A stretch of DNA of 64,000 bases. It comes from an uncultured virus (IMG/VR IMGVR_UViG_3300036045_000006) (Duplodnaviria; Heunggongvirae; Uroviricota; Caudoviricetes). Where the stretch lies: IMG/VR virus record IMGVR_UViG_3300036045_000006. One strand, given 5' to 3'. The notes beneath the pieces were generated by a model. The model had not been told where the DNA came from. It was given only the letters and a program-made list of their open reading frames with translations, and searched no databases. Below are positions 3,901-46,772 of this stretch, in pieces. Within the stretch, counting starts at the first letter, position 1; every line of letters starts with the position of its first letter. The position numbers and the translations under genes are program-made.

Positions 3901-5687
3901 CAATTATCGTAACCTTTCCCGTTTCTTAAGAGAATATTATCTTCGATATAAGTAGTGCCGTAGCTGATCTCGTACTGAATGCCCGGCGACGAGCAATCGG
4001 TGATCAGATTCCGACGAATCATCCCATTTCGGTTATCAATGTCGTACCAAATGCCCTTTGCGCCGGTATGATGCACGTAACAGTCTTCGACGACGGCGTT
4101 GTTGGAGTATTTGATCTTCGAGCCGCCCGCTTCCCAGCCTGCATCATATCTGGCGTAGTTGTGCCAGGAGACTTCAGAGCGCCGAATAATGAAATCGTCC
4201 CCGGTGCCGCCAAAGCCCATCTGCCCGCACTCGGTAATGAGTGAGTCCTCGATCACCATCGACGGGCCGATGTTTACCCCCGTCCCGTGAACATGCCGGA
4301 TGATGCAATTGCGAATGATCCACGCGGACGTGTTATCCCCGTGGATACCGCCGCGCTGTTCGCGCACGGCCACTTTTTCGACGGTCAGATTTTCGATGGT
4401 CACCCCCGTGGCCGAACCACGGATCAAGCCCTCACTTGAGGAATTGACCACCGAGGTCTCGACGAGGTGACCGCTCGGATCATCTTTGATATAGATGCGA
4501 TCGGCCGTGTAGTCAAAGTACCATCCGCCAGTCGCCAGCGCGCTCAGGCTGGTATGGTGACGAAGCGGCACATCATCGAAGAACAGATCCTCTGGCCGTA
4601 TCGCCCGCTCGTAGCCAGCCTGAGCGCGATCCAGCGGATCACCGGAGTAAAAAAAGCCCTCCTGCGTCTGACCGGTCACGTACCAGCGACCCCCGTTGGT
4701 TGACTCGAATATCCAACCCGTAAGGATTTTCGCGCCGGAGAGTGTCACCTCATCGCGGTTCAGGCCAGCGGCTGCGCGCAGGGTATCGCCATTCTTCGGC
4801 TGGATATTCCCGCCCGGCAGACGATACAGTCCCGCATTAAAAATATAGGTCGTTCCCCCGGAGCCAGCATTGATCACAGCCTGGACATCATCACCGGGAT
4901 TAAATGTGTGCGTGTTGGGCGGTGTTGAGCCGGACGCGGCCGCACGACGCGGCGGCTCCATAAGCGCAAACGGATTTTCGTAGGCGGTACGAATTTCATC
5001 GGCCGTGAGCGCCCGCGCCCAGATCGCGGCCAACACCATATATCCCGAGGCGCCCGTTCCGGTCGAACTGTTGGAACGGTTCAGTAGTGTGATCGGTTGC
5101 TGCGCGCCCCAATCCACATCGCCATTGGCTGCGGATTTGGCCGCGCCGTGCTGCGCGCCGTTGCGGTAAAAGATCACCGACGACCCCGACCGGGTGACGG
5201 CATACTGCGTCATCCCATCGTTGACGGAAATAAAGCCACTGTCTGAGGTGGTCAGAATTCGGGAGCTGTTGGCTGCGTACTCAAACGCACCCTGGCTGCC
5301 CGATCCTTCGCGGCCCAGACCGATTGAAACCAGCGGGGTCACCCATGTGCCACTGGCATACGGCACAGTGAGGACACGTCCAGATGAGGTGATGCCCGGC
5401 ATCCAGGCCCACACCAGGATCGTCAGGTCGCGCTTGATCTCCAACAGACGCGGCGAAAAGCTGTAATAACCGCCGCCGGTGGATGTACTGTTGGATCGCA
5501 GCGACGTTCCCATGGCGGTGTGATAGTTGGATGTGATCGAGCCGCTGGCGAGCAGTTGCAGCGGTGCGCGATGCAGAAACTCAAAAACGTGATCCGGCCC
5601 TGGCGCCGCGAACCAAACCAACCCGCGCGCAAGCGGGTGATCGACATTCAGCCTGGCACCGCGCGCGGGCTTGATCCGGGCGATCAT
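942..5687 (-). CDS. ~1581-aa multidomain virion fibre/adhesin: LamG/ConA-like, parallel beta-helix, malectin-like and Ig-like domains, 20 x 23-aa repeats, C-terminal beta-sandwich
   Basis: Likely start is ATG 5687 (TAATG overlap with the upstream gene). LamG-like YAVTRSGSSVIFYRNG...AIWARALTADEI; beta-helix with repeated IxNCxI/IEDN units; malectin-like YRVNAGG...GSRVFNILIEG...YVSGIE; Ig-like FRAQGLPLGLDIDDSTGDITGT. Confidence 0.8.
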   Translation of the reverse strand: MIARIKPARGARLNVDHPLARGLVWFAAPGPDHVFEFLHRAPLQLLASGSITSNYHTAMGTSLRSNSTSTGGGYYSFSPRLLEIKRDLTILVWAWMPGITSSGRVLTVPYASGTWVTPLVSIGLGREGSGSQGAFEYAANSSRILTTSDSGFISVNDGMTQYAVTRSGSSVIFYRNGAQHGAAKSAANGDVDWGAQQPITLLNRSNSSTGTGASGYMVLAAIWARALTADEIRTAYENPFALMEPPRRAAASGSTPPNTHTFNPGDDVQAVINAGSGGTTYIFNAGLYRLPGGNIQPKNGDTLRAAAGLNRDEVTLSGAKILTGWIFESTNGGRWYVTGQTQEGFFYSGDPLDRAQAGYERAIRPEDLFFDDVPLRHHTSLSALATGGWYFDYTADRIYIKDDPSGHLVETSVVNSSSEGLIRGSATGVTIENLTVEKVAVREQRGGIHGDNTSAWIIRNCIIRHVHGTGVNIGPSMVIEDSLITECGQMGFGGTGDDFIIRRSEVSWHNYARYDAGWEAGGSKIKYSNNAVVEDCYVHHTGAKGIWYDIDNRNGMIRRNLITDCSSPGIQYEISYGTTYIEDNILLRNGKGYDNWLWGSQILMHSGQGCIVRRNLCVVDSDGGNGIGVVNQNRGSGAYGVWTGKNNTITDNVIIYKGSAGASGVVTDFDNANFWATHNNVFNRNIYRVVSGQTGQSRYRWNDANRTITSLRSNDSQELDGYELLGVAADLDSTRWKSIQWRANSVGYRVNAGGSASAALLQVDGAQNFAADGSSPSNLHSPAGTFNGDNSYTISQIHSSVRSRTPMALFRSRRNVSSPDDLTWTFPFATDGYPSGRWEICLYWMANESAGSRVFNILIEGATVESNFDPASFAGGTLRACAKYYTVTADSPLTVLLDRVTGDPYVSGIEAWYVGPVATSPGNQTSNRGAVIDLPVSATDPGAGLIFRAQGLPLGLDIDDSTGDITGTVSMEAEDSYSTVVYVYNADYPNVANTLEWTWTISGGQTLSPSGIAVSVTVGAPALTVGAVNVAPSGIVVPIGLGAATIVPGERVLSPSGIAVSIAMGAPTIQTSAVIQPPGIATAITLGAPTVTRGAVALSPPGIATAITLGAPTVNVGAATIAPSGLAVPVMFGTPNLTPGDIPVAPPGIATPIALGTIEVVPNTTSISPPSLGSILTMGTPTVTVGAVTVAPAGLPVSIAMGTPVVTTGNVTVMPSSISVPMALGSPSVTVGAVSMTPTGVGIPVAFGNFTTQYDAVQIAPPGIAVPVTLGGIVLTPRYTITEVGGLGLPITPGTPTVTPGAVQVAPPGIAVPVVIGEPTLNVAGVQELEMTGIAVPIALGAPVIAPGPVMIAPGGIHVPITINIPIVQPGEVAITPVGVSLPSSLGNPAVARGAVEITPPALLLPITLGAPTVGVSNVVIAPVGLSLLHMGVPALIPGAVDIRPPGFQIPIAFGIPEVGDWRRPALIRATDSIDETMPAPTRRRVNVYDPGDLIYLHVTFSVRGQARDPETVRLRLKFPDGVTLMYTFDQEPSLVRVAVGIYRMLLVPMQEGDYYYRWEGTGPATGAIERRFHIRDSVFF
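1310..2675 (-). repeat. Coding tandem repeat, ~20 units of 23 aa (69 nt), consensus about [VI]xPxG[IL]xxP[IV]xxGxPx[VL]xxGxV
   Basis: Units counted in the translation. Exact 47-nt duplication at 2345-2391 and 2414-2460 (period 69); another shared block near 1746 and 1884 (period 138). Confidence 0.9.
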
Positions 5688-14441: not shown

Positions 14442-14729
14442 ATGATCGCCAATGCTGCTCTGAACGTCAAGTCTCTGTCTGTCGAAGACCTCGACGCTAT
14501 GGACGCCGACGCCCTGCTGTCCTCTCTGCGCCAGGTCGCCATCTATTACCAGGAGGGTCAGGCCGTGCCCGCAAACGCCTGGTACATTCGCGGCGACCTC
14601 TACATCCGCGTGGACATCACCCATCGTCTTACGGTCTGGTACACCTTTATCGACCTGGGAACGCTGGAACACTTCAGCGAAACCCGGCTCGATCGTGCGG
14701 CGCGCATCCTGCGTCTGGCGCTGGATTGA
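14442..14729 (+). CDS. Hypothetical protein
   Basis: Follows the promoter and an AGGAAAGG RBS. Confidence 0.6.
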   Translation: MIANAALNVKSLSVEDLDAMDADALLSSLRQVAIYYQEGQAVPANAWYIRGDLYIRVDITHRLTVWYTFIDLGTLEHFSETRLDRAARILRLALD

Positions 14730-14754
14730 CAAAATAATTATTTACTGACATAAT
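14726..14754 (+). promoter_or_regulatory. Sigma70 promoter with AAATAATTATTT operator (family B)
   Basis: TTGACA-17-CATAAT; the same core recurs at 38503-38531. Confidence 0.8.
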
Positions 14755-26608: not shown

Positions 26609-27712
26609 TTATTTGCTTCTGGCAGCACGAACCATCTTCACCCACTGCTCGATAGCATCCAAATCGGCATCCTTGATCCTGGCGATGTCGTCGCTCTGAA
26701 CACGCCGAAATGTCGCCGCAAAACGTTTCTTCACACGCGGATCGGCGAGCGGCGGGTTCCAGATGTCACGAGCAGCCGGGCGCTCTGGCTGCTGTTGGCG
26801 CGTTATGTTCGGTGCATCGAACATATCTTTTTGTTTGTTGAGTGCTCGGCCTAATGACCACCGCTGATCGTCTGCCATGTTCCACGCCTCTGGCGGAAGT
26901 TGCAGCACCTCCCGATAGTCGGAGAGCATCGAGCGCGCCGTCAACCCCATCGCACTCAGCAGCATGTCGCCCTTGCCTCTGGGCACACGCAGGTCAAGCG
27001 CCTGCGCATAAAACGCCTGGTCGCTGGCGCACTGGTCGTAAGGGGTGAAAGGCCGGTCAGGGTGCAGCGCCATCATCAGGATCGCATACTGTCGAGCCCG
27101 GCCAATGGCTGACAGATCGGCGCGCGCATTGTTCTCAGCCGCCTGCCGCCACACATCCAGCTCGCTCATCACACGCGCGGGGATATGTCGCCATTTGGCA
27201 TCGGGCAGCATCTGATACAGTAAATGATAGGCCAGCCACCGACGCTCACCGGTCTCCAGTTGATAGCGCTTATTGCCCAGGTTGATCACAGTGATCGGGT
27301 TGGTCAAACCATCGCGGCGAATGCTGGCAGCCAATGCTGCCAGCTCTATCAGCGCCTGGAGCGCCGGGTTGTTGTTCACGACCAGCGCCTCAGTATCGCC
27401 ATCGCCGTTCACGATAGCTACCAGCACATCCCGGACATCTGGCAGGTCGACAGCGGCGGCATTGACTAACGCGCCGAACACGTCCTCCATCGAGGCATAG
27501 TCGCTGTACCGACCCAGGTCACTGGGCAGGATACGCCGCGGCTGCGCGGGATCCGGGGAGATGCTGAAGATATCGATCACATCGGCGGTGATCCGCTGGT
27601 TGCCCGGCAGGTGGGAGTTAAGCGCCGCCAGCGTGGGCGCGGGCGCCGTGCCGGAGCCGCCGAAGTGACTACCTGCGGTCTGCTGGTTAATCACGTTAGG
27701 CTTCCTGCTCAT
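26609..27712 (-). CDS. parB: ParB-family partition protein
   Basis: ISPDPAQPRR, GLTNPITV, LETGERRWLA (GxRR box), AENNARADL. Confidence 0.9.
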   Translation of the reverse strand: MSRKPNVINQQTAGSHFGGSGTAPAPTLAALNSHLPGNQRITADVIDIFSISPDPAQPRRILPSDLGRYSDYASMEDVFGALVNAAAVDLPDVRDVLVAIVNGDGDTEALVVNNNPALQALIELAALAASIRRDGLTNPITVINLGNKRYQLETGERRWLAYHLLYQMLPDAKWRHIPARVMSELDVWRQAAENNARADLSAIGRARQYAILMMALHPDRPFTPYDQCASDQAFYAQALDLRVPRGKGDMLLSAMGLTARSMLSDYREVLQLPPEAWNMADDQRWSLGRALNKQKDMFDAPNITRQQQPERPAARDIWNPPLADPRVKKRFAATFRRVQSDDIARIKDADLDAIEQWVKMVRAARSK

Positions 27713-28557
27713 GACATAACCGCCTCAGGATTTTCCTCCGGCTTCGGCGGGGTCAGCGCGGCAATCAGGCGATCCACGATGGCCAGCATTTCGGCCTCTT
27801 CCGGGCCGCCATGCAGGTAGCTGTACATCAGCTGTCCGTACTTGGTCGCCGTGCTCCAGGCTTCGCGCTGGGTGAGCATCGGCCACACCAGGCCCTCGAA
27901 GTAGCGACCCAGGTCCTGGATGTTGTCCCGTTGATTGTTGGTGCTGTGACGGTACTTGTTCGGGATGATGCCGAGCATCTCCGTGGCAGGCAGCTTCATG
28001 CGGACCTTCTCGCGATTGATCGCCTCGATCTCCGTCAGCGACTCGTTGAGGCCGTCGAAGCTGAGGCTTGCGCATTCGGTCACGTACACGAAACCGTCAG
28101 CCGCCACGTTCACCGAACCGTCAAACATCGACGCAGTCGGGCCGGTATCAATCACCACCAGATCGAGATTGAGCATGGCGATCATATCGTCGATGACGTT
28201 GCTGAAGCGAAACGGGTTCTGTTGCTCATATGGGATTAGCGCGGTGCGCTTGTCGCCCGGCAGCAGGTACAGTGCGCTTTCGAGCGGCGCGCCCGGTGGG
28301 GTGAAGCGCATCGGGTCCACCACATAAATCATTTCCGCCAGCGATGCGTCAGCGCACATCACATTGTACAGGCCGTCCATCTTCGGTAGCCCGACGAGGA
28401 GTGCATCATGGCCCTGAGCATCGGTATCGACCAGCGCCACGCGATACCCGCGCAGCGCGATCCCGGCAGCGATATGCGTGGCGACGGTCGTCTTGCCGAC
28501 ACCGCCCTTGCGGTTGGCGATCACGATGCGCTTTTTCGTGAATTCCTGCTTATCCAT
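27709..28557 (-). CDS. parA: ParA-family partition ATPase
   Basis: Deviant Walker A ANRKGGVGKTT, LVDTDAQG, VVIDTGP; coupled to parB. Confidence 0.95.
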   Translation of the reverse strand: MDKQEFTKKRIVIANRKGGVGKTTVATHIAAGIALRGYRVALVDTDAQGHDALLVGLPKMDGLYNVMCADASLAEMIYVVDPMRFTPPGAPLESALYLLPGDKRTALIPYEQQNPFRFSNVIDDMIAMLNLDLVVIDTGPTASMFDGSVNVAADGFVYVTECASLSFDGLNESLTEIEAINREKVRMKLPATEMLGIIPNKYRHSTNNQRDNIQDLGRYFEGLVWPMLTQREAWSTATKYGQLMYSYLHGGPEEAEMLAIVDRLIAALTPPKPEENPEAVMS

Positions 28558-29090
28558 TATCCTGTCTCCCTTCGGTTTGAATGTGTTATACTTGCGTGTG
28601 TGCGGGGTTGGTCTCCCTTCCTCCGCGTAAGCCAGCCCGCCCACCGGGCTGTTCTTATTTTAGTCGAACGATAAGCTCCAGGTCATCCAGACGCTGCGTC
28701 AGTTCCTGAATGCGCTGCGCCTGCTGGTCCAGACGATCCTGGAGGGGTTTGGTACGCGCCTCGATCGCGGCATTTACCGCCTCAGCCTGCTGGCGGGCGA
28801 TGGCCTGGATCAACTCGCGGTCACGGCTTGGGTCTGGCCCCATCACTTGTCTTGTCCTTGATAAACGTCAGCAGGGTATAACCGCGCTGAAGACCGCGGC
28901 CGCGTTCGTCCTGCTGCTTGTCGAGCCGGAAGCCCTTGGACATCCACTTCTCAATCGCCTTTTTGATTCGGCGGTTGTCCGGGTTGCCGAAGATGCCATG
29001 CCCGACGCGAACGAGTTTGACATTGCCTTTGCGTGCCATGCGATGATGCTCCTGATGCAGTTCCGCGACACGCCCGATTGTATACGGCGC

Positions 29091-30136: not shown

Positions 30137-30361
30137 CTATCTGTCCTTTGTCTTCAGCTCAGCCAGGATTGAAGCCTGTTGAGACTGATACTCGCGCAGC
30201 TTGTCAGTGACCTCGGCAATATTGGGATGCAGCGTGATCAGCGCTTGGCGCAGCGTATCGGACACGTTTGCGGTGCCGTACATGGCCTTCAGCGTCATGA
30301 TCCACTCTCTGACATCGTCGTCAATTCGGACGGGCATTGTCCCCTCGCGTCGGCTTGACAT
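30137..30361 (-). CDS. Small ribbon-helix-helix-type regulator
   Basis: MPVRIDDDVREWIMTL...NVSDTLRQAL. Confidence 0.6.
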   Translation of the reverse strand: MSSRREGTMPVRIDDDVREWIMTLKAMYGTANVSDTLRQALITLHPNIAEVTDKLREYQSQQASILAELKTKDR

Positions 30362-30950
30362 TTGACGATCTCCATTCTACAATCTTCATTGTAAGTAGTC
30401 AACTCTACGCTTCTACCCGTAGAGCAGCTTAGAGGAACGCACAGATACGATGATACTACAGCGCTATGACGCTGCAAAAAGGGGATCGTTTTTTGCGAGG
30501 TCATCGCATTATATGATCGATTAACGCATTTCAAACTATATTGTGCATAAAATCAAACTCGCTTTCCAAGAGAATTTACGACATTCATAATCTTATACAT
30601 GGAGACATAATATCGCTGTGACAAGATTGTGACCATTTGGTATTAATTCTGCCGATAATAAAAACGAAACTTGCATGAAAAGCGCTTACGTCTCTATAGA
30701 CTTTATGGTATATTTTCTCAAAATTAACTTAACGTTTTTCATAATGACTTAATAAATTGATGCGGATGGGGACATCCGACCTAGCAGGTCGGGGTACAGG
30801 CGAGGGGCACATCAGCAGGCGCCAGGTGGGACGATGTGCGGATGGGCGGCGCGGCAAGGAGGGCACACACACACAGGAGGTTGCAGACAATCCGCAATCG
30901 TTAGATCATCTGTTCTGGACAACTCTGGGGTGATAGAATCAAAGAGGTTG
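30362..30950. promoter_or_regulatory. Divergent control region between maintenance and replication operons
   Basis: AT-rich; TCTAC/GTAGA repeats at about 30376-30424; LexA-type box GATCATCTGTTC 30904-30915 upstream of extended -10 TGaTAGAAT 30931-30939. Confidence 0.6.
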
Positions 30951-31186
30951 GCAATGCAGACAGAGACGGAAGAAACCCAACCCGCGCGCACGACGCAGTT
31001 CATGAGTCTGGCTGCAACCAGCAGCGCGGAATACGAGGCCGCCGAAACCACCATCGCCGAGATGGTCGACAGCGGCGCTTTTATCCTGTACCAGCGCGAC
31101 ATCACCATGGTGACCTACACCCGGCTGGATGGCGAGCTGGTCTCCACCGAAACGCGAACCATCGAGGTGCTGTTCGAGATCGAATC

Positions 31187-32581
31187 ATGACCGAGATCCA
31201 AGCCAACAACCTGGCCATTACCGCCGCGAACGTGCAGGACATGCGCGTTTTTGTGCCCGCGCTGCCGACAGTCGCGGACATCATGGCGCTCACCGAAATG
31301 GCCAAAGCCGTAGCCCTGTCGGGCTTTCTGAAGTCCAACAGCAGCGACATCCGCCAGCGGGTAGCCGATGCTTTCTTTGTCATGAAGTATGGCCACGAGC
31401 TGGGCATCCCGCCAATGGCGGCGCTTAACACCATCTATGTGCTCGACGGGAAACCATCGACATCCGGACAGGCGATGCTGGCGCTCCTGCGCAAAGCCAG
31501 CATCGACATCGAGCTGCCCAACCCGGGCCGGATCACCGACGCCGCCACCGTGCGCATCCGCCGTCCGGGCGGCCAGTGGCGCGAATACACCTACACCGTA
31601 GAGATGGCGAAGAAGGCCGGTTTAATCGGCAAGAAAAACTGGGAGAAGCACCGCGCCGAGATGCTGATGTGGCGTGCCGTCTCCACGTCCGCCCGGTTCG
31701 AGGCGCCGGACGTGATCCTGGGCCTGTACACGATCGAAGAGATTGCGCCCGATCTGGAGCTCGACGACCAGGGCACGCCCATCAACTACTTGGAGACAGT
31801 CACGGTTCAGGGCGGCGACTCTCCGTCCGAAAGCACGTCACCCCGCGATGTGCTCAACCGGACCGCACCCAACCGGATCGACACCACCGAACCACCGCCC
31901 GCGCCGGAGTGGCCCTCGCAGCCGGCGGTCGATGAACTGCTCAAACGGATCCGCACCGGCTTGATCCCCGACATCACCGACGGCGAGATTGCGCGGCTGG
32001 CCAACATCTCCTCGGTGAACGACCTGAGCCCGTCAGGATGGGGCAAGTACAGCAGCCGCGCCGCCGCCGCCACCGCGGTCAAGTCTGCGTTTGAATACGA
32101 AGCGCAGAACGGCAAGTCCAACAAGCAGACCTCCTCGGTCACCAAAGAGGACGCACCGTTCACCTGGAACGACTTCGACGAACACGCGATCGAGGACTGG
32201 CTCCACAAATATTTTGTGAGCCTGCGCCTGGATAACCTCGGCGAGGAGATCGGTAAGCCGTTGCGGGAGTGGAAAAACCCCGACGCGCTGAAGCAGGCCG
32301 TGACCAACATCGCGATCGCCAAGAAGCTGCAGCTTCGCGCCACCGGCGTGAAGTCCTACGATGGTAAGGCCATCGTGCTGGACACCGTGCCCGAGGTGCG
32401 GCTCTACGGCCGCGACAGCCTGCGCGCGCTGGGTGAGCACTGGAAAGCGCATGTCGATGCCTGGGAGGCGGGCAAGCCCGTCACGTTGTACTGCCCGGTC
32501 TGGGTGATGAGTTTCGAGCCCGGCGCTAACGGCACGTATTTCATGGCCAAGGCGGTCGCCAGCGAGGACATTCCGTTCTGA
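31187..32581 (+). CDS. recT: RecT-family single-strand annealing protein
   Basis: GHELGIPPMAALNTIYVLDGKP...AKKAGL...NWEKHRAEMLMWRA...PDVILGLYTIEEI; C-terminal EDIPF. Confidence 0.85.
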   Translation: MTEIQANNLAITAANVQDMRVFVPALPTVADIMALTEMAKAVALSGFLKSNSSDIRQRVADAFFVMKYGHELGIPPMAALNTIYVLDGKPSTSGQAMLALLRKASIDIELPNPGRITDAATVRIRRPGGQWREYTYTVEMAKKAGLIGKKNWEKHRAEMLMWRAVSTSARFEAPDVILGLYTIEEIAPDLELDDQGTPINYLETVTVQGGDSPSESTSPRDVLNRTAPNRIDTTEPPPAPEWPSQPAVDELLKRIRTGLIPDITDGEIARLANISSVNDLSPSGWGKYSSRAAAATAVKSAFEYEAQNGKSNKQTSSVTKEDAPFTWNDFDEHAIEDWLHKYFVSLRLDNLGEEIGKPLREWKNPDALKQAVTNIAIAKKLQLRATGVKSYDGKAIVLDTVPEVRLYGRDSLRALGEHWKAHVDAWEAGKPVTLYCPVWVMSFEPGANGTYFMAKAVASEDIPF

Positions 32582-33102
32582 TGAACGCGGAACTCCAACT
32601 GCTGGCCGAGCGCCTGGCCGTCGCCAGACAGGCGCATGAATACGCGGAACACCTGTACAAACAGGCTGAAGCGGAGTGGAAAGCCAGCGCGCCGATCGCC
32701 GCCATTCAGATGGCGCGAACCATCGCGTCCGACCAGAAGAAGATGATCGAAAAGCAGGCCCGCGAACAGATCGCGGAGGCCGCCGAGCGGGGTGACGATC
32801 TGGGCATGTACTTCGGCGTGCAGCGCCGGGTCACCGCCATCGTCCCGGATGAGGCGGCACTGATCGGTTGGCTGATCCGTGAGGCGCCGGTCATCGCGCG
32901 GCAGGTGCTGAGCATCGACATGGACGCGCTCTATAAACTCCTGGTCAATAACCAGGTCGAGCGCGACGGCACGAAGCAGATCGCACCGGCACTGGCGGAG
33001 ATGCCTGCCAGGATCGGCGAGCAGCTGACGCCGGTGATCCATTGGTCGAAACTTCCGGAACCCGCACCGGAATCAGACGTCAAAACAAACTCTGCGTCGT
33101 AA
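32581..33102 (+). CDS. Helical recombination-module protein (Gam/Gp157-like, tentative)
   Basis: Coupled to recT; coiled-coil N-terminus followed by a beta-rich part. Confidence 0.4.
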   Translation: MNAELQLLAERLAVARQAHEYAEHLYKQAEAEWKASAPIAAIQMARTIASDQKKMIEKQAREQIAEAAERGDDLGMYFGVQRRVTAIVPDEAALIGWLIREAPVIARQVLSIDMDALYKLLVNNQVERDGTKQIAPALAEMPARIGEQLTPVIHWSKLPEPAPESDVKTNSAS

Positions 33103-33159
33103 AGGCTTGCGCAACATGAGTCGATCGGTTATGCTAGGAGGTGCTTATGGCCCTATAAG

Positions 33160-33246
33160 CAGAAAAAGCCACGATAGGCTTTTAACTGCTTGTCACATTT
33201 TTTTTCACACATGGTTGGGGCACGTCCCCACGCGCCCGACCAACTA
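33160..33246 (-). ncRNA. Candidate antisense RNA to the rep leader
   Basis: - strand promoter TTGACA (33275-33280)-17-TAGACT (33252-33257); internal hairpin ~33213-33242; terminator 33164-33183. Confidence 0.6.
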
Positions 33247-33329
33247 TGCTCAGTCTACCGCAGCGGTGGAGTGCTGTCAAGTATTCCCCGCTGCCGGTCA
33301 CATGAGCGTTCTGTAAAGGCATGGAGGCA

Positions 33330-33413
33330 ATGAACACTGAACATCGCGACCAGCGCCCGGCGGAGGGCGGTTTAAAAATCATCCGTCTTGTTCCCTGGTG
33401 GACGCAGCCATGA
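33330..33413 (+). CDS. 27-aa leader peptide coupled to the replication initiator
   Basis: RBS GGAGG; MNTEHRDQRPAEGGLKIIRLVPWWTQP*; its TGA overlaps rep ATG 33410 (ATGA). Confidence 0.55.
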   Translation: MNTEHRDQRPAEGGLKIIRLVPWWTQP

Positions 33414-34612
33414 ATGCGGCAGCTGTCCAGGGGATGAAACCCAAACCTGTCATCGTCCCGAATTCATTCCAGACGCCGAACGCGCACGTCGATGACGTGA
33501 TGCAGTATCTCACCGGCGACGAGTTCAAGGTACTCAATTTCGCCACCCGGCACATCCTCGGATGGCAGGATTCGCTCAAGAAGAAAAGCCACTGCATCAG
33601 CCTGACGATGTTCGAGCACGGCTTTCTGACGCAGGACGGCCGGCACTTTGGCGGCACCGGACTGAGCCGTCCCACCATCGTCAAATGCCTGGCGCAGCTG
33701 GTGACCTATGGGCTGCTGGTAGCCATTGGGGATCCCGGCCCCGACGGGCAGTGTTACGGGCTGGGCGAGTCGCCCGACGTGGCTGCGCTCCAGAGCCGCA
33801 AAGCGGGGAAGAAGTCCAACGCGCGTCAGAAGATGGCGCCGGTGCGCGCCAGACGTCAGGTCGCCGCTGCTGGTCAATCCCATTTACCAGTTAATGACAT
33901 TAACCACCCATCCGATCCGGTTAATGCCATTAACCAGAAGGAGTTAATGCCATTAACCGATCCTGGTCAATGGCATTTACTGAATCAAACACACATAAAC
34001 ACACTAGAAACACACTCTTCTTTTGCGCCTGACGGCGCGCACACAAACGCGGATCCCCAACCTCCCGCGATCGCCGCGGAATCGTCGGACGCCTCTGGGT
34101 CTTCCATCATCCGGGAAGAATCGATCCCGGACGTGTCTGCTGCGCAGACACCTGTATTACCCGACGCCTCAGCGCCAGCCGACGAACCGCCCGCCTACGA
34201 CGTGTCGCACCAGGACATGATGAATGCCATCGTGTCGGCCTTCGAGTGGGAGCCTGAGGATATTGCCAAAGGCAAGTGGGGGGAGATCGCGAAAGCCTCG
34301 AAGGATTTGCGGAAGCTGAGGGTGGCGCTGGACGAAGTGGCGATCCTGCATACGTACTGCGCGCGCAAGTTCGACTCCTTTGGCCCGAACGCGCTCGCGA
34401 AGTGGACCGCGGACTGCCGGCGCGACCTGCGCAACGGGACCTTTAATCCTTACGAGGATGAAAATGAGGATGCCAGCGCGCCGTGGCATGAAGTATTCCG
34501 TCCGGACGCCGACGAAGAGACCGGGCCGGGCCAATACTACGACGCGGTGCAGCGCAACATGCAGTTCCTGCTGGCGCGAATGTCACCGGGAAAGGATCAC
34601 GGTCATGGATAA
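33410..34612 (+). CDS. Phage replication initiator (N-terminal wHTH, internal iterons)
   Basis: PNSFQTPN...YLTGDEFKVL...RHILGWQ...TGLSRPTIVKCL; directly upstream of DnaB. Confidence 0.85.
   Translation: MNAAAVQGMKPKPVIVPNSFQTPNAHVDDVMQYLTGDEFKVLNFATRHILGWQDSLKKKSHCISLTMFEHGFLTQDGRHFGGTGLSRPTIVKCLAQLVTYGLLVAIGDPGPDGQCYGLGESPDVAALQSRKAGKKSNARQKMAPVRARRQVAAAGQSHLPVNDINHPSDPVNAINQKELMPLTDPGQWHLLNQTHINTLETHSSFAPDGAHTNADPQPPAIAAESSDASGSSIIREESIPDVSAAQTPVLPDASAPADEPPAYDVSHQDMMNAIVSAFEWEPEDIAKGKWGEIAKASKDLRKLRVALDEVAILHTYCARKFDSFGPNALAKWTADCRRDLRNGTFNPYEDENEDASAPWHEVFRPDADEETGPGQYYDAVQRNMQFLLARMSPGKDHGHG
33872..33981. repeat. Five 17-bp palindromic iterons (GGTTAATG-N-CATTAACC), probable replication origin
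   Basis: Copies start at 33872, 33889, 33919, 33942 and 33965; an A/C-rich tract follows. Confidence 0.85.
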
Positions 34613-36041
34613 TCAAACTGCGCCTTACAGTCAGGAGTCAGAGGAAGCGGTGCTGGGCGCGATCCTGGTTAATCCCAGGGCGCTTATCCCGATTCGCGCC
34701 TGGCTGACCAGCGAGCATTTCTTTTTCGTCCGTCACCGCTATATCTATGACGCGCTGCTCGCGTTGCATGATGCGGCGGCGGCGATTGATTACGTCACCG
34801 TGGTAGATCGGCTACAATCCGTCGGACAACTCGATGCGATCGGCGGCCCGGCCTATATCACGCAGTTGATCAGTTTTACGCCTACGTCCATCCACGCCGA
34901 ACATTACGCTCGGATCGTCGAGCGGACCGCCGTCCGGCGTCAACTCATGGAGCAGGCCGAAAAAATTCGCGCGCTGGCCGCCGACCAGAGTAAAACCCTG
35001 CCGGACGTTGTGGACGAAGCCACCGCGCTTTTCACCAGCGCGACCGCGCCAACGGCCGCTGCCAACATCCTGACGCTCGAAGAAGGCCTTCAGCAGAATT
35101 TCGCGGAGGTCGAGCGCGCCTATCAGGAGTATGTCGCCAACCCGACCGATAACGACATCCTGGGATACCCCTGCGGGATTGCCAATGTCGATGCATTTTT
35201 CAAAGGGTTTCGCAAAGGCGAAGTCTATCTCTGGGCAGGTCGCACCCACATGGGTAAGACCGGCGCGATGCTCACCGTCGCGCTGGGAGCAGCGCGCATG
35301 GGCGCGCGCGTAGCCTTTATCAACGTCTCCGACGGCGATGAAGCCTCCATCATCAACCGGCTGATCTCGATGGAGATCAATATGCCGGCGGACCATATCC
35401 AGCATGGTCGCTTCAAAACGCCGGAGCAGTACCGGCTCTATGTCGAGGCGATCGGACGCCTCAGCAACCTCAAACTCTATGTCTACCACGAACTGAACAT
35501 CCCGATCGCCAAGCTGCGCAATAAGGTGCGCGCGCTTCAGCACGAGCACGGTCTGGATATGGTCTGCATCGACTACATGCAGCGCATCGCCGCGCCGGAG
35601 ATTCACGGAGACACCTTCAAGGAAATCAATTACGTTTCCAAGAAACTGAAGGAGCTGGCCAGCAGCAAGGAAGCCAATGTCAGCCTGCATGTTGGCGCGC
35701 AGCTCAACCGCGCGACCGGAACGGGTCGGCCCGGTCTAGAACATCTGAAAGGATCGGGCAACCTGGAAGAAGACGCGTCAGCGGTGGTGCTGCTGCACCG
35801 GCCCGGCTTCTATCAGAAGAACGCCGACAACCCCAACAAGACCGAGGCGATCGTGCCCAAGAACCGCGCCAACTACCGGCTCGGAACCGTGCTGCTCGAC
35901 TTCAATCCCATTTCGGGCGGCTTCCGCGACGGCAGCCATTACATCGAGGAAGAGGAGACCAAGCCCAGGGCGGCGCGCAAGATCATCCCGCTCAACCAGG
36001 ACGGCCGCCGGCGCGCGTCCGGCGAACGTGATGACGATTAA
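34605..36041 (+). CDS. dnaB: DnaB-like replicative helicase
   Basis: PYSQESEEAVLGAIL, Walker A AGRTHMGKT, CIDYMQ, AQLNR, LKGSGNLEEDA, KNR. Confidence 0.95.
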   Translation: MDNQTAPYSQESEEAVLGAILVNPRALIPIRAWLTSEHFFFVRHRYIYDALLALHDAAAAIDYVTVVDRLQSVGQLDAIGGPAYITQLISFTPTSIHAEHYARIVERTAVRRQLMEQAEKIRALAADQSKTLPDVVDEATALFTSATAPTAAANILTLEEGLQQNFAEVERAYQEYVANPTDNDILGYPCGIANVDAFFKGFRKGEVYLWAGRTHMGKTGAMLTVALGAARMGARVAFINVSDGDEASIINRLISMEINMPADHIQHGRFKTPEQYRLYVEAIGRLSNLKLYVYHELNIPIAKLRNKVRALQHEHGLDMVCIDYMQRIAAPEIHGDTFKEINYVSKKLKELASSKEANVSLHVGAQLNRATGTGRPGLEHLKGSGNLEEDASAVVLLHRPGFYQKNADNPNKTEAIVPKNRANYRLGTVLLDFNPISGGFRDGSHYIEEEETKPRAARKIIPLNQDGRRRASGERDDD

Positions 36042-36058
36042 GGATGTTATAACCCTTA

Positions 36059-36568
36059 ATGTCTTGCCATATTGACCAGATAATTAGCCTCTGTGATAAT
36101 GTGTCACAGAGAAAAGGGGCGCCTGTGTTACAACAGAATATGAGGTATATTATCGTGGGGCGGCAGCACAACATGCGTTATTCAGGGCGGTTTGTGGAGG
36201 CCGTCGACACGGTCCTGAAGGCTATCGAGTACCAGCCCAAAGCCAAAAATCACAGCGGCTACAGCGACGCGGTCCAGGCAGCCGTCGAGGAGTGGCTGAC
36301 CGACATCCGGAACGGTTTCCCGCCGACACGGCGGGAGGTGGAGAGGTTATACACCTACTATCGTAAGGCTTCGGCCGACGTGAAGAAAAACGTGTACTAC
36401 AACGACAAAATCCTGAACGGCCTGATGGAGATTGGGGAAGATCTCCGTAAGTACAATCAGGATGTCTTCACAAACCAGGACTTCACCGCGAAGTCCGGTC
36501 TCAATTTTTCGATGGTGGCCTACATGGCGGTCTGCAGGATGGCCGACAAAATCGAGGCGCGCGGGTGA
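36059..36568 (+). CDS. Hypothetical protein, possible regulator (start uncertain, possibly GTG 36155)
   Basis: ORF track; GAGG RBS before 36155; overlaps the methyltransferase start. Confidence 0.5.
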   Translation: MSCHIDQIISLCDNVSQRKGAPVLQQNMRYIIVGRQHNMRYSGRFVEAVDTVLKAIEYQPKAKNHSGYSDAVQAAVEEWLTDIRNGFPPTRREVERLYTYYRKASADVKKNVYYNDKILNGLMEIGEDLRKYNQDVFTNQDFTAKSGLNFSMVAYMAVCRMADKIEARG

Positions 36569-38484
36569 ACCGGTTCGCCGGTCCGATGCTGCGCAAGCTG
36601 GCCGAGACTTACCGGAAGGACGCCGCCCACAAGCTGCGTCCCTTCGGCCAGCAGTCGGAGAAAGTCGCGCACCTGGCCAACACTCTGGCTGACCTCTGGG
36701 ACCAGGATGCCGTTCCCGACGCGCTGAGAAAAATCGGCACGAAGGCGCAGCTGGAGGCGGTGCTCCGCCCGGTGCGCACCACCACGATCGAAACGGTCGG
36801 CGATCCGGATCAGGTCTGGGCGGCGGTGGCCGCGCTCGATCTGCCATCGGGCGATCTCACCGAAGCGGATCAAATCGATCTGCTGCGACGTGAAATTCTC
36901 CTCAAGCCCATCCCCGGGTTTTTCCCCACGCCGCCGATTCTCATCGACCGCATGTTTGTCCTGGCCGACATCCGGGACGGCGATCGAGTGCTGGAACCCA
37001 GCGCCGGACGCGGCGATATCGCGGCTGCCGTGCGCGCTATCCGTAAGCAGGTCACGCTGGATGTGATCGAGATTAACGTGTCCTTACGGCGCATCCTCGA
37101 AGCCCAGGGCTACACCATCGTCGCTACCGACTTCATGACCTTCTACGAAAGACGCTACGACGTCATCCTGATGAACCCGCCGTTCGAGAACGGTCAGGCG
37201 ATGGCGCATGTCCGCCATGCATATGACCTGCTCGAACCGGGCGGGCGGCTGGTGGCCATCCTGCCAAGCGGTGATCTGACGATGACCGTCGGCAAACGCA
37301 AGGCGTTTCAGGACTGGCTCGTCTCGCTGGAGACCGATCACGTCATGAACTACATGAATGACCGCGATGCGTTCCGGGACAGCGAAAAGCCCACTGCTGT
37401 GGCTACCCATACACTGCTGATTCGCAAGGCTTGCATATCGTCGGAGGCAAGTTTTGACGAAAGCGATCCGGTCGATTTCCTTCTGCGCGAAGGCACGCAC
37501 CTGGGCCGGAGTGGGGAGTTCGTCCATCTGGGCGCATACAATCCGGTATCGAGCTTATGGAAAGTCAGGCCCTATACTGCCGGAGCGAATGGCGATCCCA
37601 GCTACGGTAAACTGTTTTTCGCTACCAGCGCCCAGGTCATCGACTGGTTCCGTGAAGAGCCGACTGTCGCACTCACACCGGATCCCGAGCCGAAACCGCG
37701 CGCGACGGCGATCGATCCCTCGCTGCTGACGCTGCCAAGTGACTTCGCCGACATCCTCGACCAGGCTGCGATCGCTGATGAGATGATCGCGCAGCGGATG
37801 CCCGTGCAGGGCGAAAAGAAGGACCTTCTGTACGGCTCCTTCATGACGCTCAGACCCGCCATGCCGATGCCTGACCGCCTGTACCGGGCCCACTGCGCCG
37901 AACTGCTGGACCGGGTAGTGAGCGGCGAGGACTATCAGCGTCCGACACGCGCCGAACTGCTGGCCGCGATCCAGAAAATTTCGCTGGTCGTTCCCACCCA
38001 GGATAAGGCGGCGGCGCTGTACGCTCGGCTGTTCATCGAGTTGTTTCCTGATCTGGCCTTCCCGGAACTGGACATGCTGAAGGAACGCTTCCCCGGCGAA
38101 ACTGACGCGCTGCGCGAAGAACTCATGACCGAAGTTGGCAAAAAGATCGACCGCGACAAACCGGAGCCGCGCGCGCCCGGCAGCCCGCGTCCTCGCGATA
38201 CCGACGAGAGTAAGCCTGACGTATCGATCCGCGAGGACGTATCGCTGCATGAGGCGATAGAGAAGGCCGTCCACTTCGAGCGCATCTGCTACAGAGATAG
38301 CGATCACGATACCCGCTACGCGGCGGCGCTGGCCGAAGCGTACTACCAGCGTATCGCGCACCTGACGCGGCGTGTGCCTTATGTCAACCGGCTTGACATT
38401 ACCGCGACGGAACCGGAACCAACCCCGGCGCTAACCTCTGAGCCGTGGACGCCGCGCACGCAGCAGATGAGACTGCCATGGTGA
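36565..38484 (+). CDS. DNA adenine methyltransferase (NPPF type) with a large C-terminal extension
   Basis: FFPTP, VLEPSAGRGDIA, ILMNPPF, LEPGGRLVAIL. Confidence 0.9.
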   Translation: MNRFAGPMLRKLAETYRKDAAHKLRPFGQQSEKVAHLANTLADLWDQDAVPDALRKIGTKAQLEAVLRPVRTTTIETVGDPDQVWAAVAALDLPSGDLTEADQIDLLRREILLKPIPGFFPTPPILIDRMFVLADIRDGDRVLEPSAGRGDIAAAVRAIRKQVTLDVIEINVSLRRILEAQGYTIVATDFMTFYERRYDVILMNPPFENGQAMAHVRHAYDLLEPGGRLVAILPSGDLTMTVGKRKAFQDWLVSLETDHVMNYMNDRDAFRDSEKPTAVATHTLLIRKACISSEASFDESDPVDFLLREGTHLGRSGEFVHLGAYNPVSSLWKVRPYTAGANGDPSYGKLFFATSAQVIDWFREEPTVALTPDPEPKPRATAIDPSLLTLPSDFADILDQAAIADEMIAQRMPVQGEKKDLLYGSFMTLRPAMPMPDRLYRAHCAELLDRVVSGEDYQRPTRAELLAAIQKISLVVPTQDKAAALYARLFIELFPDLAFPELDMLKERFPGETDALREELMTEVGKKIDRDKPEPRAPGSPRPRDTDESKPDVSIREDVSLHEAIEKAVHFERICYRDSDHDTRYAAALAEAYYQRIAHLTRRVPYVNRLDITATEPEPTPALTSEPWTPRTQQMRLPW

Positions 38485-38502: not shown

Positions 38503-38531
38503 TTGACAAAATAATTATTTTGCGCGATAAT
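38503..38531 (+). promoter_or_regulatory. Sigma70 promoter with perfect palindrome CAAAATAATTATTTTG (family B)
   Basis: TTGACA-17-GATAAT; palindrome at 38507-38522. Confidence 0.85.
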
Positions 38532-43902: not shown

Positions 43903-45087
43903 GTGAGCGATCCGCTGTCTCTCGAAGTGGCCCGGCGCGAAATGCTGTACGCGCTTGCGCCGTGCGCGCCGCTTCAGGCAATCCTGCAGGCGATGGCGCT
44001 GTTTGACCCGGTGGCGGTCATGGGTCAATTGGATATGGACGACCCCGCCGACCTACTGTTGTCCATCGTCCGCGATTACCTGAGGTCTGAGTACGGCCAG
44101 ATCGCCTGGCGCATGGTGCATGAACGCATCGACCAGGACGAGATCGGGCGTGAGTTAGTGGCCGCCATCAACGAAATCTTCCACACCGAATACGATCTCG
44201 ATGATATTGACTTTGTCGCGTTCGGTGTTCCGCATCCCACGTTTGGGATCGGCTGGACGTTCGGGCTAAAAGAGGATTACGGCGTTGGCGCCATCGCCCG
44301 CGACGGCATCCGCGATGTGATCGACCTGTTCGACGGCGATATCGACGAGGGCGAATTCAATCACGAGTTGGTCGATCGGTTCATGAAGCAGCTGCGCCCC
44401 CGCTTCAATGATGATGTGTACAGCGAAACCTGGGCGTTTATCGGCTGGGTGTTTGCGATGTCGGGTAACACGCTGCTGGATTCGACGCAGGAAGAGCTGG
44501 CCGAACTTGGCGTGTATGAAAGATGGAGCCGGGACGCGGTGGCCAACATGCTCGCCATTATCGAAGAGGCCGAAGAGATGCACGCCCAGGCGCTGAAGGC
44601 CTGCGGCTGGATGGAAAACAATGAGGCTTACGCCGCATGGCTGCGCGGCGCTGTGGAGGAGATACGCAATGGTTGCGAATTTGGCTGGCCCGACATCGGC
44701 AGCCTTTTCCCCGACGAACGACGCGCTGCGGCTGGCGATGGCCCTTCAGCCGCTGCTCATCCTGACGATTTACGAACACGCCGCCATTGTCCGGCGGCCC
44801 GCCGAGTCGGCCAACGTCGAGTACGCGGTCGATCCCAAGGACGTGATCGCCGCGCTGTCAGGCGACATGGAAATGTCCACCGGATTGCTGGGCGGCAATA
44901 CGCTGTTGGTGTCGCAGCGCGGCGCCCGTCAGCGCGTGGTCGAGTTTCGTCCCGCCCAGGTCACCGGCCTGTGGCTGGAAGGATCGGAAACGCCTATCCG
45001 CGTCCCGCTTCCGCCGCTCATCATGGAGCGCGTGGTCACCGGCGGCACACCGTCCTATCGAGTCTTCGCCATCAAGCGGCGGCCTGA
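43903..45087 (+). CDS. Acidic protein upstream of E2 (PRTRC protein F-like position)
   Basis: GTG overlaps the upstream TGA; WVFAMSGNTLLD...WSRDAV; frame stays open 419 nt into the E2 gene. Confidence 0.6.
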   Translation: MSDPLSLEVARREMLYALAPCAPLQAILQAMALFDPVAVMGQLDMDDPADLLLSIVRDYLRSEYGQIAWRMVHERIDQDEIGRELVAAINEIFHTEYDLDDIDFVAFGVPHPTFGIGWTFGLKEDYGVGAIARDGIRDVIDLFDGDIDEGEFNHELVDRFMKQLRPRFNDDVYSETWAFIGWVFAMSGNTLLDSTQEELAELGVYERWSRDAVANMLAIIEEAEEMHAQALKACGWMENNEAYAAWLRGAVEEIRNGCEFGWPDIGSLFPDERRAAAGDGPSAAAHPDDLRTRRHCPAARRVGQRRVRGRSQGRDRRAVRRHGNVHRIAGRQYAVGVAARRPSARGRVSSRPGHRPVAGRIGNAYPRPASAAHHGARGHRRHTVLSSLRHQAAA

Positions 45088-45403
45088 ACTCACGGACAGA
45101 CGGGTCGGCAGTGATCCGCTGTTCAACGCGCCGCTTCCGAATGTCGGCCACGGTGGCGTGTGCTGGGGGACGGTCGCCAAACCGTCCGACGCGCACCTGA
45201 AGGGGACAAGCCTGGCACGTGACTGGGAGCTGCTTCTCGGCAGCGAGTTCGGCAGCCACAACGTTGGCTACAAAAGCCTGAAGTACGGGACGGACATCCG
45301 CCAGATGTACGTATCGCTTGAAGGAAAAACCCGTTACCCGGTCAGCGATCTGGTGTCTGCCAACATGACCGTGGCCAAACTGCTTCAGATGGAGGAGTCA
45401 TGA
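44669..45403 (+). CDS. Prokaryotic E2 family D (PRTRC protein B type)
   Basis: RBS GGAGGAG before ATG 44669; VPLPPLI, YRVFAIK, PLFNAPLPNVGHGGVCWG (candidate catalytic Cys), SEFGSH. Confidence 0.85.
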   Translation: MVANLAGPTSAAFSPTNDALRLAMALQPLLILTIYEHAAIVRRPAESANVEYAVDPKDVIAALSGDMEMSTGLLGGNTLLVSQRGARQRVVEFRPAQVTGLWLEGSETPIRVPLPPLIMERVVTGGTPSYRVFAIKRRPELTDRRVGSDPLFNAPLPNVGHGGVCWGTVAKPSDAHLKGTSLARDWELLLGSEFGSHNVGYKSLKYGTDIRQMYVSLEGKTRYPVSDLVSANMTVAKLLQMEES

Positions 45404-46155
45404 CCTGGACCTTTGAATACAGTCAACGGATCGACTCGATCATGGTCGTCGGACTGGGCGGCACCGGCTCTCAGGTCGGACGGTCGCTGGCGCGGCTGCT
45501 GTATGACATGAAGTCGCGCGGCCTGCACATTCCGTCGCTGCACTTCGTGGACCCTGACCGGGTCGAAGCCAAGAACGTAGGACGCCAGATGTTCACGCCG
45601 GCAGATGTCGGACGGTATAAGGCCGAAGTGCTGGCGAACCGCTTCTCACTGGCGCTGGGCCTGCCGATTCGTTTCTCCAATGTAGCCTTCCACGGCGCGC
45701 AGTATCGCACTCTCGTGATCGGGTGTGTGGATAACCACGAGGCGCGCAAGGCGATTCACGATAAGCTATCCATCATGAACCTGCCGTGGATTGACTGCGG
45801 CAACCACTTCGCCAGCGGGCAGGTAATCCTCGGAACGACGGCGCGCGCGGAGTCGGTGCAGCCCAAAGACGGCAAGTTCTTTAATCTGCCGTATGCGCCG
45901 CTGGTCTTCCCTCAATTGCTGGAGCCGGAACCACCGCGCGCGGTAGAACTGTCGTGCGCGGACCTGGTCGCTCAGGGCGATCAGCATTTGTTCATCAACG
46001 ATATGATCGCCACGGTCGCCATGCAGTACGTATACAAGCTGCTGCTGCGCCAGCCGATTACCAGCTTCATGACGTTCGTTGACCTCGACACCGTCACGGT
46101 CAAAAGCGTCACCCTCAGTCCGTCCGACCTGGGCGCTTATCTGCCCGCCGCGTGA
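45400..46155 (+). CDS. ThiF/E1-like adenylyltransferase (PRTRC ThiF type)
   Basis: VVGLGGTGS, DPDRVEAKNVGRQMF, VIGCVDN, WIDCGN, LSCAD...QHLFIN. Confidence 0.93.
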   Translation: MTWTFEYSQRIDSIMVVGLGGTGSQVGRSLARLLYDMKSRGLHIPSLHFVDPDRVEAKNVGRQMFTPADVGRYKAEVLANRFSLALGLPIRFSNVAFHGAQYRTLVIGCVDNHEARKAIHDKLSIMNLPWIDCGNHFASGQVILGTTARAESVQPKDGKFFNLPYAPLVFPQLLEPEPPRAVELSCADLVAQGDQHLFINDMIATVAMQYVYKLLLRQPITSFMTFVDLDTVTVKSVTLSPSDLGAYLPAA

Positions 46156-46772
46156 AATCGTGGCGGGTTGTCCGCGACGATGGCGACCGGGTGAAGCAGG
46201 TCATCGTCGAAGATCATTACCTCCAGCGTTGGCCGGACGCGCGCAGTCTGCCGTTCGCCTATCGGCTCATCCCGACACTAGAAGGGTTAGGGCACTGCGC
46301 GGAAGACGGCCGCCCGTTCGGGGTGGTGGTGTTTAAAAAACCACAGCATCAGCAGCAGCGCGGGTTGTTCGGGTATTCAGGGTTGCCCACGTCTTGGCAG
46401 GTTCTCGATCTGGCGCGGGTGTGGGTGCATCCAACGTTGCAGCGCAAACGCGAGGATGGTCATGCCGCCTGCACCTTTTCGCAGATGGTCGGCCTCGCCA
46501 TCCGCCGCGTGCAGCAGGATTGGCTCATCCATCATCCGCCGCGTTACCCCGAACTGCCGTATCACATCGAGGTCATTGTGAGCTACTGCGATTTGCAGCA
46601 TCACGATGGCACGGCCTACCGCGCCAGCGGATTCCGCTGGATCGGTTACACCACCGACCGCAAGAAAGAGGTCTACGCGCGCAATCTTCTGCCACCGCTC
46701 AAGCGTTGGCGGATGCCGGGCGATGTGCAGATCCCGCTGCCCGGCTTCGGCGCGCCTTTGAAATATGATTAG
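46152..46772 (+). CDS. Mom-family (GNAT-fold) DNA modification protein
   Basis: VLDLARVWV...VIVSYCD...HDGTAYRASGFRWIG, matching the Mom-type SYAD...HxGxxYxA motif. Confidence 0.75.
   Translation: MKSWRVVRDDGDRVKQVIVEDHYLQRWPDARSLPFAYRLIPTLEGLGHCAEDGRPFGVVVFKKPQHQQQRGLFGYSGLPTSWQVLDLARVWVHPTLQRKREDGHAACTFSQMVGLAIRRVQQDWLIHHPPRYPELPYHIEVIVSYCDLQHHDGTAYRASGFRWIGYTTDRKKEVYARNLLPPLKRWRMPGDVQIPLPGFGAPLKYD

Follow-up and report, generated by a model that had tools for sequence, protein, structure and literature searches.

The 64,000-nucleotide stretch of DNA analysed here (hereafter, the window) comes from an uncultured tailed phage recorded in IMG/VR as IMGVR_UViG_3300036045_000006, with a GC content of approximately 60 %. 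Within its rightward early operon, the gene for a lambda-O-like replication initiator (rep) is separated from the preceding gene, which encodes a 173-aa protein, by a gap of 307 nt (33103-33409). The question raised by this locus is what the gap does for the expression of rep and of the DnaB-type helicase gene (dnaB) behind it. A preliminary description had proposed antisense and leader-peptide control in the manner of plasmid R1, and all of the elements on which that proposal was built were recovered in place from the sequence, the list of open reading frames (ORFs) and the promoter scan. Our preferred reading, which we hold tentatively, is that the gap may instead be a convergent antisense unit similar to pO/oop of phage lambda, damping the read-through expression of rep and dnaB. 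The coordinates of the features are collected in Table 1.

The leftward promoter and its predicted RNA

The proposal centres on a leftward promoter of the sigma-70 type, located 130-158 nt upstream of rep. Promoter sites with at least 10/12 matches numbered nine in the 64-kb window, compared with 2.13 ± 1.35 in 200 simulated sequences. For the narrower class that combines a perfect TTGACA with a -10 box of the TAnnnT type at a spacing of 17 nt, six sites were found against 0.27 expected, and the maximum in the simulation was two. The other five members of this class are intergenic and stand ahead of genes on the same strand; downstream of the promoter at 33280 there is no minus-strand gene for approximately 3 kb, so that its product would be non-coding or antisense. 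These counts suggest that the antisense promoter ahead of the lambda-O-like, iteron-bearing initiator is likely to be real; its firing, the ends of its RNA and any effect on rep are inferred. The same scan, applied to lambda as a positive control, recovered pO and the canonical terminator tO.

On the plus strand, no promoter with 9/12 or more matches was found in the gap. The rightward promoter candidate of the preliminary description is present as a sequence, but its 7/12 matches, the best in the gap, lie below the threshold of the scan, and its -10 box, TATGCT, ends at 33135 and abuts the Shine-Dalgarno (SD) sequence at 33136. A transcript from this site would thus start in or after the SD sequence and be unable to serve the mini-ORF that follows. 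Since the gap holds no better plus-strand promoter, rep most likely depends on read-through from upstream.

The start of the predicted antisense RNA was placed approximately 7 nt after the -10 box. From there, the RNA would first form a 5' stem-loop (hairpin 2), which an A-rich, single-stranded linker of 20 nt would join to the 3' stem-loop (hairpin 1). The stretch 33245..33150 folded with an energy of -36.2 kcal/mol (z -3.55), and none of 200 shuffled sequences folded as well (0/200). The energy of hairpin 1, with its inner arms AAAAGCC at 33164-33170 and GGCTTTT at 33177-33183, was -15.4 kcal/mol on the plus strand (z -4.16) and -16.4 on the minus strand (z -4.75). The further stems of the preliminary description, hairpins 2 and 3, were likewise found and fold better than expected by chance. 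Hairpin 2, with one G-U pair exclusive to the minus strand, reached -19.7 on that strand versus -16.3 on the plus strand, while hairpin 3, with two G-U pairs exclusive to the plus strand, reached -29.5 on the plus strand (z -6.09) versus -20.5 on the minus strand (z -3.17). As hairpin 2 lies inside the predicted RNA and is more stable on the minus strand, and hairpin 3 lies outside it and is more stable on the plus strand, this strand asymmetry fits the oop-like model.

In the proposed mechanism, the 307-nt gap would be a regulatory spacer, the core of which is the leftward promoter firing against the rightward early operon and yielding a short non-coding RNA from approximately 33245, composed of hairpin 2, the A-rich linker and hairpin 1. 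Expression of rep and dnaB, being dependent on upstream read-through, would be lowered by the convergent promoter through either or both of two routes: the converging polymerases could interfere with one another, as for lambda pO versus pR, or the RNA could pair with approximately 85 nt of the rep leader, giving a duplex that RNases specific for double strands could attack. On the plus strand, hairpin 1 and the offset T8 run, following a well-initiated 3-codon ORF, could act as a weak, translation-sensitive pause or attenuator. In lambda, pO is convergent to pR, lowers transcription from pR and tunes replication, as outlined in PMC3985674; the oop RNA also pairs with the cII-O transcript, and PMC5869508 gives its 52-nt overlap with cII and cites work on RNase III.

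Several observations weigh against this reading. With its -10 box TAGACT and a GC-rich spacer, the leftward promoter is weaker in these two elements than the other five promoters of its class. Read from either strand, hairpin 1 falls short of a canonical terminator: its U-tail scored 0.35-0.90 in the plus and 0.55-1.76 in the minus orientation, compared with 3.3-5.0 for the phage's own terminators. On the minus strand, the full stem scored 0.55 and is followed by no U-run, the inner stem scored 1.76, and the standard scan, which does find lambda tO, listed no minus-strand terminator at this hairpin. A discrete RNA of approximately 89 nt, compared with the approximately 85 nt envisaged in the preliminary description, is therefore not assured. 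The predicted RNA overlaps neither the ribosome site of rep nor the upstream gene, and hairpin 3, the strongest structure, is unexplained by the oop-like model. Among the loci of 46 relatives, none (0/46) carries a minus-strand promoter with 10/12 or more matches within 500 nt upstream of rep, and at 9/12 matches, eight were seen against 12.2 expected. A covariance model of the predicted RNA matched only the RNA itself in 404,673 bases. Contigs over 32300-34700 came from four DNA runs of two samples, and those covering the gap were identical to the window, offering no variants for covariation.

Hairpin 3 could belong to the rep leader as an element of the plus-strand RNA. Alternatively, and only as a conjecture, the DNA itself may form an imperfect palindrome centred on the -35 box and serve the antisense promoter as its operator. 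The motif of its arms is not enriched in the window (45 occurrences, 44 expected). Short repeats accompany the hairpins on the plus strand: GTCACAT follows hairpin 1 (33192-33198) and hairpin 3 (33297-33303), and CACACAT (33206-33212) follows the T8 run. These may be due to chance or represent a short protein-binding motif. A 19-codon minus-strand ORF starting at ATG 33212 was considered as a small protein and dropped, as it has no SD sequence and lies partly within hairpin 2. The idea that GGCTTTTAAC represents a nut/boxA-like motif was also considered and then dropped. The gap sequence is not repeated elsewhere in the window.

Promoters elsewhere in the window share features of their own. 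Those at 14726-14743 and 38503-38520 (plus strand) do not differ over an 18-nt core, TTGACAAAATAATTATTT, for which the chance expectation is 0, and a similar promoter at 36072 reads TTGACCAGATAATTAG. The palindrome AAATAATTATTT in the spacer looks like an operator of a common regulator for a set of promoters.

Table 1. Positions in the window of the features in and around the gap upstream of rep
Feature	Position	Strand	Remarks
ParB	26609-27712	-	PF02195
ParA	27709-28644	-	PF13614, CbiA; phrog_164
Gene for 173-aa protein	32581..33102	+	Last gene before the gap; stop TAA 33100-33102; GC content at third codon positions (GC3) 0.79
Weak promoter-like site TTGCGC-17-TATGCT	33107..33135	+	7/12 matches; seen at a relaxed threshold, below the standard scan
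SD sequence AGGAGGT	33136-33142	+	4-nt spacer to mini-ORF
Mini-ORF ATG GCC CTA TAA	33147-33158	+	
Predicted antisense RNA, ~89 nt (89-96)	33245..33157	-	Both ends predicted
Hairpin 1	33157-33191	Both	AAGCAG / AAAAGCC, 6-nt loop, GGCTTTT / CTGCTT
T8 run (A8 in predicted antisense RNA)	33198..33205	+	4-6 nt past hairpin 1
Hairpin 2, GC-rich	33212-33242	-	5' stem-loop of predicted antisense RNA
Leftward promoter TTGACA-17-TAGACT	33280..33252	-	Sigma-70 type; 10/12 matches; convergent with rightward early operon
Hairpin 3, ~19 pairs	33257-33298	+	-35 box of leftward promoter in loop
Short ORF	33321..33413	+	30 codons, 27 from ATG 33330; probably not a gene; stop TGA 33411-33413 overlaps rep ATG as ATGA
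Lambda-O-like replication initiator, rep	33410..34612	+	phrog_678 'replication initiation O-like', E 9.5e-10
Five iterons, GGTTAATGNCATTAACC and variants	33872..33981		Inside rep; AT-rich stretch follows
DnaB-type replicative helicase	34596..36041	+	Pfam DnaB_C 3.2e-45, DnaB 2.5e-29; phrog_19 1.2e-72

Small reading frames and other readings of the gap

Two small reading frames lie in the gap, and they differ in their signs of translation. The motif AGGAGGT occurs six times in the window, on both strands, and only the copy in the gap has an ATG at working distance. The layout of AGGAGG, 4-8 nt and a start codon is used by real genes of the window (for example at 16914, 23896 and 49148), and a 3-codon frame follows at the gap copy only. 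The strong ribosome-binding site and mini-ORF of the preliminary description are thus borne out, and the translation start of the mini-ORF looks real as judged from this layout. Its stop codon, TAA 33156-33158, overlaps the foot of hairpin 1, the stem of which begins at 33157. Reading the mini-ORF as a longer gene with TAA as a sense codon was dropped, since two TAA and then a TGA codon follow within 52 codons of non-coding composition.

The short ORF before rep, in contrast, is probably not a gene, although the preliminary description was correct that it is present and that its stop codon overlaps the rep start as ATGA. An SD-like GGAGG or AAAGG lies only 1-2 nt from either of its ATG codons. 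ORFs inside the gap have a GC3 of 0.53-0.57 compared with approximately 0.8 in the neighbouring genes. The short ORF had no PHROG match, and the 35-residue frame before rep matched none of 39 C-termini of the relatives' upstream ORFs at E <= 100. The ATGA overlap itself follows automatically from AAT as the second codon of rep.

These properties bear directly on control of the R1 type, by CopA/CopT and tap, in which an antisense RNA would block the 27-codon ORF, the translation of which rep would need via the ATGA overlap. Besides this overlap, the presence of an antisense promoter, the position of the SD sequence and ATG of rep within a modest local hairpin (33389-33437), and the packing of rep against an upstream plus-strand ORF of at least 60 codons in 35/46 relatives speak in its favour. 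However, the 5' end of the predicted RNA, at approximately 33245, leaves 75 nt to ATG 33321 and 84 nt to ATG 33330; at this distance, the RNA cannot occlude the ribosome site of the short ORF, so that the comparison with CopA and tap fails on geometry. The SD spacing, the non-coding GC3 and the automatic origin of the overlap also argue against it, as do the folding of the short-ORF region (33300-33440), which is like that of shuffled sequences (z -0.28), and the initiator, which is O-like and not an IncFII RepA. We consider the R1 type of control, as put forward in the preliminary description, to be highly improbable.

The mini-ORF is central to another reading, in which control is exerted on the sense strand only and the minus-strand promoter is incidental. 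A ribosome loaded at the strong SD sequence and stopping at TAA 33156-33158 would cover the 5' arm of hairpin 1 and so decide between pause and termination at hairpin 1 and the T8 run, and hairpin 3 would serve to process or stabilise the rep leader. The match of SD sequence, spacing and ATG to real gene starts of the phage is consistent with this, as are the overlap of the stop codon with the first two bases of the stem, the plus-strand specificity of hairpin 3, the fold of the whole gap (z -3.46 on the plus strand versus z -1.69 on the minus strand) and a plus-strand terminator-like site listed by the standard scan, which uses a weaker alternative stem (33173-33194; 7 pairs, 3 of them G-C). 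The T8 run, however, stands farther from the stem than the 0-2 nt that separate stem and U-run in an intrinsic terminator, and its tail score was 0.66-0.90. No alternative antiterminator pairing was identified, the relatives show no conservation, and a leftward promoter from a class with approximately 0.27 chance matches per window would be left unexplained. Sense-strand control alone appears unlikely to us, though worth keeping in view. The poor tail of hairpin 1 on the minus strand leads to a different proposal, in which the leftward promoter is real and its polymerase does not stop at hairpin 1 but goes on to transcribe the 173-aa and recT-like genes in antisense, ending, for example, at the terminator-like sequence 32777..32759; like oop with cII, such a transcript would act on the upstream genes and not on rep. 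Minus-strand terminator-like sites do exist at 32777..32759 and 32150..32130, and in lambda, 52 nt of cII, the gene upstream, are covered by oop (PMC5869508). Yet the tails of these downstream sites are also poor (0.70 for 32777..32759), and terminator-like matches in the region are no commoner than in shuffled sequences (3 versus 2.3). We regard a long antisense transcript as improbable.

The gap could also lack a dedicated function, being a spacer or a decayed remnant of mosaic recombination between the recombination and replication modules, in which the SD sequence and mini-ORF would be left over from a former gene start and neither the promoter-like site nor the hairpins would take part in regulation. 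The resemblance of the mini-ORF to a truncated gene start agrees with this, and so do the absence of a gap from most relatives and the failure to find a counterpart among the 46 relatives or in the collections of phages, plasmids, viral contigs and metagenomes. Three hairpins (z -4 to -6) and a promoter of an enriched class within 150 nt are nevertheless unlikely to be accidental, which makes this explanation rather improbable in our view. At the other extreme is a bolder proposal, to which we assign only a slim chance: a two-part RNA device in the rep leader would dose the single lambda-O-like initiator of a Chloroflexota-type phage-plasmid, combining a regulated convergent antisense promoter, with its -35 box centred in a 19-bp imperfect palindrome as operator, with a hairpin/T8 attenuator governed by the ribosome that terminates on a 3-codon ORF, so that one replicon would serve low-copy plasmid and lytic modes. 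The broader suggestion of the preliminary description, in which one initiator might be tuned for plasmid and lytic modes, is compatible with the presence of ParA and ParB and the lack of a second initiator. The lambda pO/oop-like unit remains the reading that we prefer; beyond it, the gap has two additional oddities: a 3-codon ORF with a good translation start that ends where hairpin 1 begins, and a strong hairpin of the plus strand that lies over the antisense promoter.

The initiator, its relatives and the genome setting

The preliminary description of rep as a lambdoid-type, iteron-containing initiator agrees with the present results. The protein matched PHROG families of the 'replication initiation O-like' kind only, with no match in Pfam or NCBIfam. 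Its start at 33410 is preceded by GGTGGA 7 nt upstream, and an alternative start exists at ATG 33434. Among 25 homologues, the top 23 were aligned with the window protein and have in common an N-terminal domain with PNSFQTPN...RHILGW; the relatives are distant, the identity not exceeding 53 % over half of the protein. When viral contigs were scanned with Rep as the single protein, no relative was confirmed. Chloroflexota lineages are named in the titles of 12 of the 16 genome matches to rep, and the host is therefore probably a member of Chloroflexota. The iterons, with five matches in the window against 0.10 expected, are all located at 33872-33981, and no iteron-like site with three or fewer mismatches was found in the gap; together with the AT-rich stretch, they form a putative origin inside rep. 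In one relative (L002, at approximately 4440-4520), the initiator encodes VVSPTNQQ three times in tandem, which mirrors the in-gene iterons of the window and of lambda. The start of dnaB overlaps the end of rep. On the other side of the gap, the 173-aa protein had no match in Pfam, PHROG or NCBIfam; it has a single distant homologue (43 % identity) in a large protein collection, and two loci at 29 % identity were found among viral contigs in the single-protein scan.

As a plus-strand ORF of at least 60 codons ends beside the start of rep in 35 of the 46 relatives, the long gap is special to the phage of the window. Two relatives that do bear a gap (L031 and L032) have sense-strand TTGACA-17 promoters instead. 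In a weak Rep relative from a Faecousia genome bin (L046), a perfect minus-strand TTGACA-17-TATAAT lies approximately 92 nt inside the rep-like match; this place, just inside the gene start, is the position of lambda pO. Comparison of the gap with the loci of the 46 relatives by blastn gave nothing better than E 1.3, and neither 32900-33700, searched by blastn in phages, nor 31000-37000, searched in plasmids, had a match. The pattern of hairpin 1 had no matches in viral contigs, and a 23-nt piece of the gap was found in metagenome contigs only in the phage's own record (L049). In Rfam, no match reached the gathering score, and three weak, unrelated ones appeared at E <= 10.

The window carries structural genes of a tailed phage (terminase, portal, tape measure and others), and its DNA is present in sediment metagenome runs; the public runs listed for it include none of RNA. 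The rightward early operon starts near 30355 and runs from the gene at 30834-31190 through a RecT-like gene (31187-32581), the 173-aa gene and the gap to the initiator, DnaB and a methyltransferase. The leftward operon consists of two small ribbon-helix-helix-like genes followed by ParA and ParB. An early control region of low GC content (30297-30830) contains overlapping opposed promoters at 30355 (plus strand, TTGACA-17-TACAAT) and 30402 (minus strand, TTGACT-17-TAGAAT). Between them and the first rightward gene (30834) lie approximately 430 nt of DNA with approximately 50 % GC; this stretch has several weaker promoter-like sites, and none of its ORFs is convincing.

A Pfam scan of 62 ORFs of the window gave no match to an integrase; approximately 3.4 kb of the 67,463-base record lie outside the window. 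With ParA and ParB present and an integrase not found, a plasmid prophage is plausible, and the gene content suggests that the phage may be such a candidate phage-plasmid. The 515-aa neighbour of parB was considered as a second initiator and rejected, being a HerA/FtsK-like ATPase. The metagenome record L049 (67,463 bases) is identical to window positions 30771-35793 over 5,023 bases with a coordinate offset of 14,824, from which it follows that the 64,000-base window is not a linear sub-range of that record and that the two are circular permutations; this suggests a circular or terminally redundant genome. Farther to the right (44621-46772, plus strand), genes for a prokaryotic E2-like protein (PF14460), a ThiF/E1-like protein (PF00899) and a Mom-like DNA-modification protein stand in a row.

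If the leftward promoter is active, the layout of lambda pO/oop would extend to a lineage whose initiator relatives are mostly found in Chloroflexota, far from the enterobacterial lambdoids. Given ParA and ParB and an integrase not found, the same control point could matter for copy number in the plasmid state, the control of which is an open question for phage-plasmids outside well-studied hosts. The value of the locus is that of a testable lead, a prediction from one sequence and not a discovery.

Comparison with known systems

The mini-ORF recalls the attenuation at rph-pyrE of Escherichia coli, which is coupled to the end of an upstream ORF. The likeness consists in a frame ending at the foot of a hairpin with a T-run after it, so that the terminating ribosome could block the hairpin. 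The frame in the gap differs in having only three codons, a T-run offset by 4-6 nt and no apparent link to a metabolite or signal.

The likeness to plasmid R1 (IncFII), as presented in PMC4344636 and PMC12361487, lies in an antisense RNA of approximately 90 nt directed against the leader of an initiator and in a short ORF ending on the initiator start. The differences are a target at least 75 nt from the short ORF, an ORF without signs of translation and an initiator of another family. In addition, neither a CopB-like repressor nor a second promoter as in R1 was identified in the analysis of the window.

Prophages maintained as extrachromosomal plasmids include N15 and P1. Those with parABS described for actinobacteriophages (PMC7157519) resemble the phage of the window in being tailed phages with ParA and ParB, and in the window likewise no integrase was found. 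The replicon here differs in consisting of a lambda-O-like initiator and DnaB, the host is probably a member of Chloroflexota, and the plasmid state is putative.

The closest comparison is with lambda pO/oop, and it has its differences. The -10 box of lambda pO abuts the O start codon, whereas the promoter of the window lies well upstream of rep. A U-run follows the 12-pair stem of lambda tO, and hairpin 1 lacks a U-tail. The overlap of oop with cII covers 52 nt in the account of PMC5869508; the short RNA predicted here would stop 54 nt past the upstream stop codon, so that any overlap would need read-through. Comparison of oop with the predicted RNA by blastn-short gave 6-mers only, the 173-aa gene upstream is not cII-like, and the helicase gene encodes DnaB in place of the P-type loader of lambda. 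What the two loci have in common is the arrangement: a leftward promoter before an O-type initiator with in-gene iterons, convergent with the early operon that supplies the initiator mRNA, and a helicase-related gene beside the O-like initiator. The lambda oop RNA has two stem-loops, and the RNA predicted from the gap would likewise have two.

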